From Candidatus Freyarchaeum deiterrae (GTDB lineage: Archaea > Asgardarchaeota > Jordiarchaeia > Jordiarchaeales > Jordiarchaeaceae), in the NCBI GenBank assembly GCA_037305845.1, contig CP147778.1, forward strand, positions 1,056,001-1,120,000: DNA of 64,000 bases. The letters are read 5' to 3'. Positions 268 to 60,332 of the stretch are shown here, piece after piece. Under the pieces are notes generated by a model. That model did no database searches and was not told the origin of the DNA. It saw nothing but the letters and a program-made list of their open reading frames with translations. A program made the position numbers and the translations under genes. Every line of letters starts with the position of its first letter. The stretch's first letter is position 1.

Positions 268-298
268 TTTTTTATCGCCTTCCTTTTTTTTCCTCAAT

Positions 299-409
299 TG
301 TATGTAAGTTATGTGGTTTTTTCAATTATTAATTTACATACTTTTACAATGTTTACATACACAGTCTATACGTACACTAGTTACATTAATAAGGCTTTCG
401 AAACATACA
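299..409. promoter_or_regulatory. Cluster of TTACATAC(A)-like boxes in a divergent intergenic region
   Basis: TGTATGTAA 299-307 (reverse), TTTACATAC 333-341, TTTACATACA 352-361, TACGTACA 369-376, TTACATTA 381-388, AACATACA 402-409. Confidence 0.45.
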
Positions 410-438
410 TTAAATTAAGAAACTTGGGGAAAGATCCT

Positions 439-1713
439 ATGAGTTATGACATACTCATTAAGAAGGACAAATACAAACAGTTCCATCTAAAAGGAAACCC
501 TTTCGTAAAAACTTCTGCGGAAGCTATGACCGAAGAGGAGATACTTGAAACTCTAGTGTTTACAGCAGAAGACGAATCGATAGCCACAAACATAGACATT
601 GTTCTCAGCGGAGGCGGAGCGACCATCAGCTTGGTGGGTGACTACGGGACTGGGAAAAGCGTTAGAGCTGTAGCCATAGCTGAAACTTTTAAGAAACATG
701 GCGGATTGGTTTTCTTATGCAAGGTTCCCAGTGGAGACCCTGTTAGATACGCGAACGCACTTTTTGAATCAGTATGTCCCGAAGCACTCTCTCTAAAACT
801 CCCCGTTGAAGATAAAGATTTTATTTTTGAAATTCGGGAATACTATAAAAATTTGAATATAAAAAATTTGGAGTTTGATTCTCATAAGGCGGGGAGAGAT
901 TTAGCAAGCGTTTTTTCTATTTTGAGTAAAAACGATTATTCTACCTGTTTTATCATAGACGAGTTTGAAGAGTTAATTTCTGCGGGAAATGAGAAAGAAA
1001 TTAGAGAAGCCTTTACTCTTACTAGGGAATATCTTTCAAGGGTTCACGGTTTAAAGAAACACATCACGGTTATTTGTAGCAGCCCAAAATCTTGGCAGAT
1101 GGTTAAAGATATTCATCCAGCTGTTATCTCAAGGATTATGGCTGAGATAGAATTTGAAGAACTTGATAATAATTCGGCTGTTGAACTGGTTAGCAAGAGA
1201 CTGAAAATATATAGAGAGGATAACCCTCCGAATCCCATTTTCCCTTTTACAAAGGAGGTTATTGAGAAAGCTAATGAGGTAGCCTATCATAATCCTCGCT
1301 ACTTACTAGTTATTCTACGAAGCACACTTGAGGCAGCCTTAAAAAGGGAGAGTAGTCAGAGTGTAGAGCTTCAAGATTTAGATACAGGCATTCGTCTGGC
1401 CAGAGGAAAGCTCAGCACGAGTATTCTTAAGAGAATGAAGGAAGAACTGACTACTAGGGAACTCGACATTTTCTTGAAAATCTGCGAAAAGTTTGGCGGC
1501 GGACCAGTTTTTGCCAGTCAGTTAGCCGAATCTTTGGATATTGACCAAGGGAATATTTCAAGGTACCTCAACAAGTTGTCTAAAATAGGGTATTTAGATC
1601 AAAATAGAGAGGGGCAGAAGGTCTTGTTCGAAGCAAAAGAACTCTATAAAGTAGTTTTCGCTAGGAAGAAAACCACCAAGATTGAGGTTAAACCTGATAA
1701 AGGTGAAGAATAA
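439..1713 (+). CDS. AAA+/P-loop ATPase with C-terminal winged HTH (ExeA/Cdc6-like architecture)
   Basis: N-terminal LKGNPF, Walker A GDYGTGKS, Walker B FIIDEFE, lid HNPR, wHTH ASQLAESLDIDQGNISRYLNKL; start moved to ATG 439. Confidence 0.75.
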   Translation: MSYDILIKKDKYKQFHLKGNPFVKTSAEAMTEEEILETLVFTAEDESIATNIDIVLSGGGATISLVGDYGTGKSVRAVAIAETFKKHGGLVFLCKVPSGDPVRYANALFESVCPEALSLKLPVEDKDFIFEIREYYKNLNIKNLEFDSHKAGRDLASVFSILSKNDYSTCFIIDEFEELISAGNEKEIREAFTLTREYLSRVHGLKKHITVICSSPKSWQMVKDIHPAVISRIMAEIEFEELDNNSAVELVSKRLKIYREDNPPNPIFPFTKEVIEKANEVAYHNPRYLLVILRSTLEAALKRESSQSVELQDLDTGIRLARGKLSTSILKRMKEELTTRELDIFLKICEKFGGGPVFASQLAESLDIDQGNISRYLNKLSKIGYLDQNREGQKVLFEAKELYKVVFARKKTTKIEVKPDKGEE

Positions 1714-7306: not shown

Positions 7307-8200
7307 ATGCCTAGAGTAATCCACCCTCAACAAGTAAACCTCGTAAAAACCAAGGAAAAAGAAAACGTAAAAACCCTAAAAAAGAGAAGGGTGTTCCACA
7401 CTACAAGATACATAATAGTCCAGTCACCGAAAGGACTCTCAGTATACGAAATCAAAACCACAGGCGACAGCCTGATAAGAACAATATCAAACGCAATACT
7501 GCTAAGTGACGAGGAAGAAACACTAACCATAGACTGCCCTGACATCGATCCCACACAAAAAACCGAAATCATAAAAAACACTATGAAACACCTAAAAAAA
7601 GAAACACTAAGCATAGTTTACAAATCAAAATATGAACACACAGGAATTGCGCTGTTCGAACCTCAAAACACAACAGTAGGAATAATAGAGATTGTACCGC
7701 CCCCAGCCAAACTAGTTGATCAAGCACAAAACGCCCAAAAACAGGGACTAATACGCAAAGACACAAAATTCGAAACAAAGACAATTAACATCCTAGACGA
7801 AATACCCAATACAAACCTACCGGTGATTTATCCCTGCAGCGCGAGCACAGGAAAAGACTTTATTTTCTTAGACACCAACCCTGAAAGAGTAGCATCACTC
7901 AAGGAACAAGCCCTTGTAATAGGCTGCCCAATAACCTTCGAAACCGTCAAAGAACTAAACCCACAAATAACAGTAAAAAAAATTGATGTATGCCCGGCAC
8001 ACTACGCAAGAAAAGAAACTACACCAAACGACTTCTACATTGTAAGATGCTGCCGCGCGAGCACCCAAGGAACACAAATATACTCACCAAAAAACAAACC
8101 CATAATAGCCCTAGAATGGGGACCCACTATAGAAAATTTCCTAGACGCAATCTACTTAGGAACCCTAATAAAAAAACACCCCAACTACCCTCTTTTTTAA
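7307..8200 (+). CDS. Hypothetical protein with spaced Cys motifs (YPC, IGC, DVCP, RCC), possibly Fe-S binding
   Basis: 297-aa ORF with AGGAG SD, 14 nt after the radical SAM gene. Confidence 0.7.
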   Translation: MPRVIHPQQVNLVKTKEKENVKTLKKRRVFHTTRYIIVQSPKGLSVYEIKTTGDSLIRTISNAILLSDEEETLTIDCPDIDPTQKTEIIKNTMKHLKKETLSIVYKSKYEHTGIALFEPQNTTVGIIEIVPPPAKLVDQAQNAQKQGLIRKDTKFETKTINILDEIPNTNLPVIYPCSASTGKDFIFLDTNPERVASLKEQALVIGCPITFETVKELNPQITVKKIDVCPAHYARKETTPNDFYIVRCCRASTQGTQIYSPKNKPIIALEWGPTIENFLDAIYLGTLIKKHPNYPLF

Positions 8201-8402
8201 AACCAAAAACCCGCAAAACCAAAACCAATACACCCTGCCTTCAAACCCAAACCACTCACACGCCACAGGAACTCCGATATTCTAAATTTTTATATACTCT
8301 AGCTTCCCTTATTCTCTATTATCTCCAAATTCGTTAAAAATATATATTCTTTATAGATTTTTTAAAAAATCATATAATCTCAACTTTCTATGTCCAATTT
8401 AA

Positions 8403-8442
8403 GAAAAGTTTATAAGTTCATCGGAAAATAGTTACTTCCGAT
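8403..8442 (+). promoter_or_regulatory. BRE-TATA promoter with palindromic operator
   Basis: GAAAAG-TTTATAA 8403-8415; inverted repeat ATCGGAA-N9-TTCCGAT 8420-8442; no convincing protein gene downstream on +. Confidence 0.6.
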
Positions 8443-8700
8443 AGAAAAAACAACTAAACAAATAGTTAAACTCTAAAAACGGTTCAAAACGAGCCGAATG
8501 GAGTTTTACACTAAATTCCCTCTCTCCCTCCTAAAGCTCCCCTCCCCTCCGCGGAGGGGGGCTCCAAATGTTACATGCTTATCTCCCTCTCTCCCTCCTT
8601 AGAGGCCCTCCTCCCTTCTTTGGGAGGAGGGGTTTAAAATTTCATGCTTATCTCTCTCCCTCCCTCCCTCATTACTTTTCCTTACTTTTGTTTTACTTGA
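8440..8700 (+). ncRNA. Candidate structured ncRNA with three C/U-rich repeats separated by hairpins
   Basis: Hairpins 8468-8506, 8542-8561, 8606-8631; CCCTCTCTCCCTCCT at 8518 and 8585; CATGCTTATCT at 8574 and 8643; T-rich end. Confidence 0.5.
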
Positions 8701-8803
8701 TTGGTGGTCTTTTTTGGTGTTTGTATTTTTTGTTTCTAGTTTGATTAAGTTTATTTTTCAAGTATGGAACAAAATGGGAATTGAAAGAGTGCAGAGGGGG
8801 TGA

Positions 8804-11421: not shown

Positions 11422-12612
11422 ATGGCATACTACGACCCAAACGACCCCGATATGAAGACAATAAAAGTTGAGTACGATGTTAAAAAACTAGTGGAATCCC
11501 TAAGAAATTCAAGCTGGGGCATTCGACAGGCTGCGGCAAACGCCCTCGTAAAGATCGGAGAAGCGGCAGTAGAACCACTTATCGGAGCACTAAATGATAA
11601 TAGTCATACCCGAATAACATCAATATGGGCACTGGGAGAAATAGGAGACAAAAGAGCCACAGAACCACTCACACAAGCACTAAAAGACAACGATTGGCAT
11701 GTGCGAGAAGCCGCAGCAATAGCCCTCGGAAACATAAAAGACGAGAGAGCGGTACAACCACTAATACAAGCACTAAGGGATGAAGATGCCGATGTTTGGA
11801 TCAAAGCAGTCACGGCACTAGGAGAAACAGGAAAACCAGCAGTAGAACCACTAATCGGGGCATTAAAAGATGAAAACAAAAACGTTCGATGGGGAGCAGC
11901 GCAAGCGCTAGGAAAGATAAAAGACAAAAGAGCCGCAGAACCACTCGCACAAGCACTAAAAGACCAAGACAAAAGTGTCTGTAAAAGCGCCGCACAAGCA
12001 CTGGGAGAAATAGGAGACAAAAGAACTGTGGAACCACTAATACAAACACTAAAAAATGAAAACAAGGACATCCAAGTGGAAGCAGCGCAAGCGCTAGGAA
12101 AGACAAAAGACAAAAGAGCGGTACAACCACTAACACAACTATTAAAGGACAAAGACAAGGATATCCGTAAAAGCGCCGCACAAGCACTGGGGGAAATAGG
12201 AGACGAAAAGGCGTCAGAACCACTCGCACAAGCACTAAAAGACGAAGACGAAGACGAGGATGTGAAAGCAGAAGCAACACTAGCCCTAGTAAAAATGAAA
12301 GACGAGAGAGCGGTACAACCACTAACACAATTTCTGAAAAGCGAAGATAGAAGGATTCGAAAAAGAGTAACAGATACCCTCATAGAAATAGGAGAACCAG
12401 CGGTACAACCATTAATACAAGCACTAAAAGACAAAGACGACCGCGCTCGATACAGAGCAGCATGGACACTAGGAGAAATAGGAGACACAAGAGCTGAAAA
12501 ACCGCTAACACAAACGCTAAACAACGACACAGAAATAGAAGTCAAACTATTCGCAGAAAAAGCACTAGAAAAACTCAAAACAAAAAAAGGCGAAATGAAA
12601 CCAAACTACTAA
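11422..12612 (+). CDS. PBS-lyase-type HEAT-repeat protein
   Basis: About 12 31-aa repeats with consensus VRxxAAxALGEIGDxRAVEPLxQALKD. Confidence 0.93.
   Translation: MAYYDPNDPDMKTIKVEYDVKKLVESLRNSSWGIRQAAANALVKIGEAAVEPLIGALNDNSHTRITSIWALGEIGDKRATEPLTQALKDNDWHVREAAAIALGNIKDERAVQPLIQALRDEDADVWIKAVTALGETGKPAVEPLIGALKDENKNVRWGAAQALGKIKDKRAAEPLAQALKDQDKSVCKSAAQALGEIGDKRTVEPLIQTLKNENKDIQVEAAQALGKTKDKRAVQPLTQLLKDKDKDIRKSAAQALGEIGDEKASEPLAQALKDEDEDEDVKAEATLALVKMKDERAVQPLTQFLKSEDRRIRKRVTDTLIEIGEPAVQPLIQALKDKDDRARYRAAWTLGEIGDTRAEKPLTQTLNNDTEIEVKLFAEKALEKLKTKKGEMKPNY
11600..12520 (+). repeat. Tandem ~93-bp coding repeats, including a 186-bp duplicated block
   Basis: GCAGCGCAAGCGCTAGGAAAGA at 11896 and 12082; GTAAAAGCGCCGCACAAGCACTGGG at 11981 and 12167. 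Confidence 0.85.
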
Positions 12613-12829: not shown

Positions 12830-13075
12830 GAAAAATCGCAAGAGGGAAAAATATATGGAAAACTCCTGAGAAAATAAGTCGCTTTCCCCCACCACAAGCA
12901 GTGGAAGGGGAATTAGATTGCGGTGTTCATCCAGCTAGAAAACGAGGGGTGGCTTCATCGCCAACACATAAAAGTGCGCTGGGAGAGGGGAGATAAAACA
13001 TAGGGGAGGAGGGCGTGAAATTGGGAGGAGGGGAAGTCATGCACATATTAGTCGGCTCGGCCATGTTTACTCTCT
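12830..13075 (-). ncRNA. Second C-rich candidate ncRNA (alternatively a 45-aa Pro/Ser-rich ORF at 12927-13064)
   Basis: Minus-strand CGAAAAC-TATATA promoter at about 13091-13105; motifs CATGACTTCCCCTCCTCCC, GCCCTCCTCCCCC and TATGTTTTATCTCCCCTCTCCC resemble the 8440-8700 element; terminal hairpin 12883-12912. Confidence 0.4.
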
Positions 13076-13328
13076 TTTGCTTTCTTTGTGCATATATAGT
13101 TTTCGGAAGATTTTGTATTTTTCGCAAAAATATTTTGTTTTTCACTTTTATTTGTATCTTATTCTTGAGAGATTCGCAAAAAAGGCGCGTTTTTAGTTAG
13201 AAGTTCAAAAAATTTTACACATTTTCAGCCGTTTACTGAAATATTTAATCTCTAATTGGGCGCCCTATTTTAGGAACCTAAGGTTTACATTTTTAGATAT
13301 ATTGTTTTGCGGTTCTCAGTTTTTTATC

Positions 13329-58631: not shown

Positions 58632-58878
58632 ATTTTTACTCTGAATTTTTATTAGTTTCAGAAGTTCCACTGAAAGGGAGAATGCTTCATTTATTTTTTG
58701 TTCCTTTTTATGCGAGTATTAATTTGTTTTTATTTTTATTTACTTTATTGCGATATTCATTTCAATTAGAGAAAAAAAGTTATTAACGAGAAGCTCCCTT
58801 TTTAAATTAACAGGGTGTTACACGGGTGGTCAATCCGTAAAAACCTTAGGTAATTACTGTTGGAGAGAGGTTACCTGA

Positions 58879-59382
58879 ATGATTCATAATATATACATCC
58901 TCCAGCGTGAAGGACTCTGCGTTCTCCACCGGAAATATGGAAGTTTGGAAGCCGATGAAGACTTGGTTTCCGGATTTTTAAGCGCTATGACCAGTTTTGG
59001 AAAAAACATTAGCGGAAAAGAAGTAGAAAGTGTTATCTTTGGCGATAAAAAATTTGTTTCGATTCCCTCAGAGCACTTAATCTTTGTATCCTATTGCGAT
59101 ACTGGAGATGAAGTCAAAAACGTTCTCTCAAACGTCAGGGATAATTTCATTAAATCCTACGGAAATCTACAAGGATGGGACGGAGAAAGAGGCGCTTTCG
59201 AAAGCTTTTTGACTAAACTTGATGAGATAGTGGGCTCAAGAGGAAAAGAGGGTATCTTCCACTCAGATTCAACAGAGGAAATTTTGAATAATTTAAAACA
59301 GGGTAAAGTATCGGCTAAAGAGGCCACAGATAGAATTCTGGATTATTACCTCAAAAAATTGCATGAGAATAAAGAGGGTTAA
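58879..59382 (+). CDS. Longin-like domain protein with short C-terminal helical motif, copy 1
   Basis: MIHNIYIL..GLCVLHRKY..DEDLVSGFLSAMTSF longin-type pattern; C-terminal EEILNNLKQGKVSAKEA. Confidence 0.75.
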   Translation: MIHNIYILQREGLCVLHRKYGSLEADEDLVSGFLSAMTSFGKNISGKEVESVIFGDKKFVSIPSEHLIFVSYCDTGDEVKNVLSNVRDNFIKSYGNLQGWDGERGAFESFLTKLDEIVGSRGKEGIFHSDSTEEILNNLKQGKVSAKEATDRILDYYLKKLHENKEG

Positions 59383-59783: not shown

Positions 59784-60332
59784 ATGATATATGATGTATA
59801 CATTCTAGTGCGTGACGGGCGTTGTATTCTCCACCGGAAATATGGAAGTTTGGAAGCCGATGAAGACTTGGTTTCCGGATTTTTGAGCGCATTGTCCAGT
59901 TTTGGAAAAAACATTAGCGGGGAAGAGGTAGAAAGTATTAATTTTGGCGATAAAAAATTTGTTTCGATTCCCTCAGAGCACTTAATCTTTGTATCCTATT
60001 CTGATAAAGAAGATGAAGTAGGAAATGTTCTCTCACACGTCAGGGATGATTTCATTAGCTACTATGGACCCCTACGAGAATGGGACGGAGAAAGAGGCGT
60101 TTTTAAAAACTTTTTAGCTACTCTCGATGAGATAGTGGGTGCAAAGGGAAAAGAGGGTATCTTCCATTTAGGTTCAACAGAGGAAATTTTGAATAATTTA
60201 AAGCAGGGTAATCTATCGGCTAAAGAGGCCACAGATAGAATTCTGGATTATTACCTCAAAAAATCGCATGAGAATAAAGAGGAGCAAGAAAAGCCGGAAT
60301 CCAGAAAGTTAAAGAGCCAGATTGGGATGTAA
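59784..60332 (+). CDS. Longin-like domain protein, copy 2
   Basis: Closely similar paralog of 58879-59382, with long identical nucleotide blocks. Confidence 0.75.
   Translation: MIYDVYILVRDGRCILHRKYGSLEADEDLVSGFLSALSSFGKNISGEEVESINFGDKKFVSIPSEHLIFVSYSDKEDEVGNVLSHVRDDFISYYGPLREWDGERGVFKNFLATLDEIVGAKGKEGIFHLGSTEEILNNLKQGNLSAKEATDRILDYYLKKSHENKEEQEKPESRKLKSQIGM

Follow-up and report, generated by a model that had tools for sequence, protein, structure and literature searches.

The 604-bp gap between convergent genes for DUF7714 and a TrmB-HTH/coiled-coil protein very probably contains an RNA gene, hereafter RNA1, whose conservation points to a real, class-wide and previously undescribed candidate non-coding RNA. 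The window, i.e. the whole stretch of DNA analysed, comprises 64,000 nucleotides (positions 1,056,001-1,120,000) of a single-contig genome of 3,576,204 bp from the Freyarchaeia (Jordarchaeia), and RNA1 forms a stand-alone, promoter-bearing, non-coding unit at positions 8335-8715 of its plus strand (Table 1). The literature searched, with subscription papers largely outside it, yielded no regulatory small RNA of Asgard archaea, and the paper describing the complete 3.58-Mbp Freyarchaeum genome mentions no ncRNAs (PMC11291895). As to function, we tentatively favor the possibility that RNA1 is a convergent analog of the bacterial cuckoo/alpha-r14 anti-Shine-Dalgarno (anti-SD) sRNAs. Below, G000 denotes the genome under study, f1 its family/genus (six genomes), and f2 the sister family (five genomes).

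Table 1. Features of the RNA1 locus and of RNA2, in window coordinates
Feature	Position	Strand	Remarks
DUF7714 gene	7307-8200	+	Constant RNA1 neighbor class-wide
Upstream dyad 1, consensus AAAAATATA-N7-TATATTTTT	8336-8361	+	Candidate transcription-factor site
Upstream dyad 2, consensus TAGAAT-N6-ATTCTA	8373-8390	+	Immediately 5' of BRE; candidate activator site
BRE-TATA promoter	8403-8416 (BRE 8403-8408, TATA 8409-8416)	+	Near-invariant in f1, kept in f2
7-bp palindrome	8420-8442	.	Not conserved, probably chance
Predicted RNA1 transcript, ~275 nt	8440-8715	+	Inferred from archaeal promoter geometry and a conserved purine-rich start region
5' hairpin	8468-8507	+	Optional part
Module 1	8506-8532	+	Seed degenerate, core intact; single-stranded, unpaired probability 0.92
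GC hairpin 1	8535-8563	+	11 bp, one U.G pair
Module 2	8574-8599	+	Full consensus bar one C-to-U seed change; unpaired probability 0.69
GC hairpin 2	8605-8633	+	10-11 bp
Module 3	8643-8670	+	Recognized from sequence
U-rich tail ending in T6 run, candidate terminator	8672-8716	+	Sequence feature
TrmB-HTH/coiled-coil gene, 753 aa	8804-11065	-	Adjoins RNA1 in f1, RNA2 class-wide
RNA2: C/U-rich loop closed by terminal K-turn	12951-13062	-	Own promoter ~13092-13104

The strong BRE-TATA noted in the earlier, sequence-only reading of this DNA is present and conserved in both families, always directed toward the pyrimidine strand of the modules. The start of the predicted transcript is placed 24 nt after the TATA box and its probable end at the U-run; homologs have T-runs at a similar distance, a likeness confounded by the G+T-rich flank. 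That reading had also taken a 7-bp palindrome over the start site for the operator. The sequence exists, and is unique in the genome, but it is absent in all homologs, including L112 and the closest relative, L102, which has lost it even though its neighbor protein is 90% identical. Per 60 intergenic bp, chance gives 0.14 inverted repeats of 7 bp, or 0.022 when those containing GC are counted alone, and we reject the palindrome as an operator. Conserved instead in f1 are two AT-rich upstream dyads, which are the better operator candidates. Dyad 1 keeps a constant position 46-47 nt before the BRE in 14 f1 homologs, while its spacer varies freely and is flipped in L102; its right arm is degenerate in G000. 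Dyad 2 is held in position among f1 homologs and is a perfect dyad in L105 and L106. A PWM scan of the genome with the promoter matrices gave no convincing second site that would point to a regulon.

The 5' hairpin, the units repeating about every 68 nt and the GC hairpins described earlier were all found where they had been placed. The module cores begin at 8518 and 8585 with periods of 67 and 69 nt, the internal self-repeat of RNA1 reaches E=1e-7, and a genome-wide search for the 15-mer core returned exactly two occurrences in 3.58 Mb, both of them within RNA1. None of 200 shuffles folds as well as the plus strand (z=-4.85; minus strand, z=-1.72); the plus strand is the better folder in only 10 of 15 homologs. 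The module cores are predicted to be unpaired, with a mean probability of 0.87. The 5' hairpin is shared by G000, L102, L103, L106 and L112, replaced by a different hairpin in L108 and absent in the others.

Across homologs the number of modules ranges from 2 to 5 and their spacing from ~40 to 69 nt, both free to vary, and the hairpins between them differ in sequence and length. The modules themselves are strongly constrained. In the 25 intact f1 copies hardly any change falls within the last 17 positions, three positions upstream (A, C, A) never vary, and 13 of 17 substitutions are exchanges between C and U. Both variable positions of the seed are C/U, so that pairing to G is tolerated. The class-wide seed, CUYACCUCCCUC, is close to the 16S 3' tail, which in G000 ends in GAUCACCUCCUUC, and some module copies read UCACCUC(C), identical to that tail.

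On the proposed selection on RNA structure, with conserved linkers and hairpins that change in sequence while keeping their pairing, automated covariation analysis of f1 hairpin 1 (86% paired) gave no compensatory change; its homopolymer stems misalign, which makes that test uninformative. A strand test on the stems counted 13 G.U against 11 A.C pairs. The f2 RNA1 has a long-range helix of 13 bp, in which one change is compensatory and G.U pairs occur on the pyrimidine strand. This f2 version (L042-L045, downstream of DUF7714) is more compact than that of f1; its 13-bp helix puts the second C-rich tract in a loop and could make a pseudoknot together with a local hairpin.

The modules do not appear to be translated. 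As had been noted, there is no convincing ORF downstream of the promoter, and the transcribed part contains none of at least 60 aa. Short peptides beginning at the ATG of each module, of which ORFs of 18-20 aa had been named as possible products, are hardly credible. An ATG does precede 14 of the 25 intact modules, but AAG takes its place in seven and ACG in four, indels of 1-2 nt occur in the modules, and the predicted peptides run from 8 to 47 aa, so that neither start codon, frame nor length is conserved; several homologs lack a module ORF altogether, and no SD lies upstream of the module ATGs.

A plain DNA search for RNA1 found little, and homologs were retrieved by fetching the equivalent gap through its flanking genes and later with a covariance model. 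The model search across related genomes brought the count to 10 of 11 genomes of the class, all with RNA1 next to DUF7714 (6/6 in f1, 4/5 in f2, where the diverged homologs were detected with rough E-values). The fifth f2 genome gave no match to RNA1 and none to DUF7714 either. About ten further variants, in either orientation, come from metagenomes, in which 4 of 45 pattern matches were homologs and the remainder mostly microsatellites; a genome-contig search added one homolog, in a Jordarchaeia MAG of the same genus. Outside the class, RNA1 was found neither in 400 Asgard genomes with the f1-specific pattern nor in 30 with the model, and the covariance-model matches in L301, L303 and L304 were inspected and are not homologs. 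IMG/VR held no viral copies or targets, and Rfam gave no match to RNA1 at gathering score in the window and none among the weak hits. Each genome has a single copy at one syntenic site rather than dispersed copies, which rules out a MITE or REP-like repeat. An intergenic C-run/G-run repeat family with a terminal hairpin does exist in this genome (G000 3,391,168; 3,393,525; 3,401,509; 3,539,181; 3,559,715), mostly G-rich on the sense strand of the flanking genes and MITE- or REP-like in appearance.

Constant proximity to the 3' end of DUF7714 throughout the class would suit a cis element of the flanking gene, either a 3' UTR or an antisense attenuator. RNA1, however, has its own promoter, and its orientation relative to DUF7714 differs between lineages, being the same in G000, L102 and f2 and opposite in the other f1 genomes, which makes a cis element very unlikely. 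Promoter and modules invert as one cassette, and the unit is thus independent of its neighbors.

In the anti-SD reading that we favor, RNA1 would act in trans as an independent small RNA of the class, with transcription driven by its own BRE-TATA and probably controlled by factors bound at the two upstream dyads. The GC hairpins would act as spacers that hold 2-5 redundant C/U modules single-stranded. Since the module seed UYACCUCC matches the 16S 3' tail, it would most likely pair over 6-9 nt with the GGAGG-type SD sites of many mRNAs and so may block loading of the 30S subunit, much as cuckoo/alpha-r14 RNAs do in alphaproteobacteria. Those RNAs carry 2-4 modules with an invariant anti-SD motif and variable stems (PMC4615179), and three redundant anti-SD motifs were shown to silence mRNAs at the start region (PMC10746234). 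RNA1 has the same traits, namely a variable number of modules, an invariant unpaired anti-SD motif and variable stems, and it resembles the cuckoo/alpha-r14/CcsR/NfeR1 group also in its conserved gene neighborhood. It differs in being archaeal and in having a motif of 21-25 nt that lies between hairpins rather than in their loops. The cuckoo 9-mer CCUCCUCCC is not the f1 module, although RNA2 (see below) and the f2 RNA1 contain it or nearly so, and it does not occur in the loops of the adjacent hairpins. With no Rfam model matching RNA1, the likeness is one of analogy and not homology, and it would be a likeness of function.

Among archaeal RNAs the closest comparison is sRNA162 of Methanosarcina mazei, a trans-acting sRNA that masks a ribosome-binding site (PMC3510493) through a single-stranded linker between structured parts; there, however, one linker serves a specific target, whereas RNA1 has repeated modules and no identifiable target. 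The C-rich anti-SD sRNAs of Firmicutes (RNAIII, RsaE/RoxS, LhrC and the streptococcal csRNAs) use several unpaired UCCC or CCUCC seeds against multiple targets. Their seeds are shorter than those of RNA1, with which they have no sequence homology, and they belong to another domain of life. Two further comparisons were rejected. Like a CRISPR mini-array, RNA1 has an AT-rich conserved leader, repeats of ~26 nt and a period of ~68 nt, but its repeats are unstructured and its intervening segments are GC hairpins that are homologous across species and free in length (spacing ~40-69 nt), not unique, unstructured spacers of constant length, and no cas gene was present among the neighbors scanned. A C/D or H/ACA guide RNA is also rejected, as RNA1 has no conserved boxes and no K-turn, and its duplexes with rRNA are at shuffle level.

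Base-pairing partners were sought with our own home-made gene calls (3165 genes). GGAGG is clearly in use in this genome, most often 7 nt upstream of starts; 272 of the 3165 start regions can pair with the seed over at least 7 nt, the seed 7-mers (the two CCUCC-containing module ends) are enriched 7-9 fold at starts, and none of 20 shuffles shows as strong a preference for start over coding regions as the real module. This preference follows from the CCUCC (anti-SD) content of the module and is no proof of targeting. Conservation of targets was examined in one genome pair, 1.7 Mb of G005 against G000, covering 799 orthologous start regions or about a quarter of the genes, a comparison that depends on the same gene calls and is blind to generic SD binding. 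In these start regions module-complementary k-mers were kept no more often than matched k-mers (113 vs 138, 20 vs 28, 3 vs 6.4 and 1 vs 1.3), and conserved helices of at least 8 nt numbered 8 against 12-17 in controls; in 0.9 Mb of aligned coding DNA of the same pair the conservation of module complements lay within the shuffle range. Within the quarter of genes covered, the test excludes extended conserved targets in large numbers and leaves short generic SD pairing possible. A long mRNA target is rejected, the best duplexes in the genome equaling those of shuffles, and five relatives have no 21-mer complement with up to three mismatches at a conserved site. A guide role on rRNA fails likewise, as RNA1-rRNA duplexes are no better than shuffles.

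The specific partner suggested earlier was GGAGAGAGG, upstream of a longin gene. It is indeed located at 58862, but it is one of ~30 start-region 9-mer matches in the genome, and although four orthologs within one clade retain it, a single conserved 9-bp site compares with 1.3-2.8 expected by chance, and longin is not supported as a specific target. The locus itself holds a tandem longin-like gene pair (58879-59382 and 59784-60332, plus strand), and each genome of the genus has 12-17 matches related to it. Pairing to the start codon was rejected as well: the 5' CAU misses the register for AUG by two bases, its middle base is variable and not conserved, and a spacing of GGAGG, 5 nt and start occurs in 3 of ~400 genes. 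Likenesses of the module's 5' part to the 5' end of U1 snRNA, at 9 of 11 positions, and to a branch point with a polypyrimidine tract are regarded as coincidences, being post hoc, with matching bases that vary and a different f2 sequence. Three long hairpins with a C/U-rich loop (G000 215,343; 219,816; 223,206) have a 13-nt core in common with the module and lie beside sensor-like genes; they are absent from the five relatives and so cannot explain conservation of the module.

The proposal of a multi-site sRNA acting on ribosome-binding sites is thus supported in part: the evidence favors a structured ncRNA that stands alone and repeats single-stranded, anti-SD-like modules, while masking itself stays tentative, no conserved base-pairing target set having been detected. 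Against anti-SD pairing stands, in addition, an invariance over 17-25 nt that far exceeds what an anti-SD seed needs, in a genome with no long complement. In a second reading, nearly as likely, RNA1 is a multi-site protein decoy or scaffold with a CsrB-like logic. Each module of 21-25 nt would then be bound by one pyrimidine-binding protein whose footprint it is, such as a KH-domain factor that normally sits on the 16S 3' tail, and module copy number would set the capacity. Dim2/Pno1, Nob1, NusA and aCPSF1 are presumably among the candidates. A decoy is favored by a long invariant stretch for which no complement was found, by unpaired A residues outside the seed that never change, by free variation of copy number and spacing, by the agreement of seed plus trailer with the pre-16S 3' end (10 of 11 positions) and by similar tracts in RNA2 and RNA3. 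Against it, no candidate protein is tied to the motif, and pairing to G would account just as well for the C/U-only variation of the seed. The CsrB/RsmY/RsmZ sponges are stand-alone regulated genes with copy-number-variable repeats on small hairpins that present GGA loops to CsrA. RNA1 is like them in its stand-alone gene and variable repeats but differs in that its repeat is pyrimidine-rich; it has no GGA in loops or linkers, its G-rich arms are paired, and the RsmY model scored only 10.6 bits, on the opposite strand.

It seems unlikely that the module pairs over its full length with a long partner that the chromosome does not show, such as a viral or mobile-element RNA, a spliced or circularized junction, or rRNA during assembly. 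Long invariance is typical of guides, the lineage is rich in introns (PMC11291895), and 16S helix 34 offers a compact bulged match to the module of -24.6 kcal/mol; the bases needed for that match, however, vary among module copies, and the shuffle-level rRNA duplexes, the missing boxes and the IMG/VR result given above also argue against such a partner. It is quite unlikely that the locus is a DNA-level element (local origin, iteron array, H-DNA, G4 or cruciform) and not an RNA. A strong local switch from A+C to G+T (rank ~15, above the 95th percentile of convergent gaps), the AT-rich conserved block upstream, the f1 core as a perfect 17-nt mirror repeat (p ~0.014) and the strand counts in stems and folds reported above would all fit such an element. 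Dozens of such switches exist, though, many inside genes; the repeat spacing is not helically phased, the polarity of the promoter is fixed relative to the modules, and f2 has a compensatory change in its long-range helix. A triplex clamp is rejected because the mirror symmetry is lost in f2, and a main replication origin because the minimum of cumulative GC skew lies near 0/3.58 Mb and the maximum at 1.68 Mb, far from RNA1 at 1.064 Mb. The switches themselves, A+C-rich on the left and G+T-rich on the right with a decay over 2-3 kb, are independent of gene strand and lie atop one global origin/terminus pattern, with examples in the window at ~8550 and ~12900.

A second RNA, RNA2, lies 4.3 kb from RNA1, is found in 11 of 11 class genomes and is more conserved than RNA1. 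Its two ends come together in a K-turn of the standard pattern (helix, GAU loop, tandem G.A pairs, helix) whose flanking pairs covary, its predicted start is at or near its first base, and it has a D-like box at the 5' end and a C-like box at the 3' end. Hairpins have been inserted at one fixed point in two lineages. RNA2 has no Rfam match; a paralog lies at G000 3,246,283-3,246,399 (L318), and a weaker match occurs in one genome of another Asgard family (L293 1500-1605). One of its tracts agrees with the RNA1 module at 16 of 17 nt, which shares the top rank in a set of 3736 intergenic windows (block-shuffle p=0.01). A common ancestry of the two RNAs is plausible. Since RNA2 is clearly RNA-structured on the pyrimidine strand, it lends indirect support to RNA1 as an RNA. 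In relatives RNA2 is directly upstream of the TrmB/coiled-coil gene, and the HEAT-repeat gene found between them in G000 only (11422-12612, plus strand) therefore looks like an insertion. A doubtful extension would make RNA1, RNA2 and RNA3 an Asgard family of globally acting 16S-tail mimics that titrate SD-led mRNAs as a class or act as decoys for a 16S 3'-end factor, RNA2 and RNA3 being L7Ae-type K-turn RNPs with reversed box order; if true, this would be translational control of a kind not described in archaea.

A class-wide family with cuckoo architecture would show an independent origin of modular anti-SD regulation in the archaeal relatives of eukaryotes, and if RNA1 is instead a decoy, its bait sequence could be used directly to get at an Asgard RNA-binding protein. 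With promoter, module and homolog set defined, both readings can be tested. Elsewhere in the genome (G000 1,804,896-1,806,517, L117, and 1,836,144-1,839,888, L101), the 16S gene contains two insertions, one of ~32 nt in the loop of the terminal helix and one near position 270. A second copy of the 16S 3' end lies 30 kb downstream, ahead of the 23S, which suggests that an element of ~30 kb with a very long ORF of ~7200 codons has integrated in the rRNA operon. The window also encodes, at 298-1713 (plus strand), an AAA ATPase with a C-terminal helix-turn-helix, which has only weak Pfam hits and may be a remote Orc1/Cdc6-like protein.
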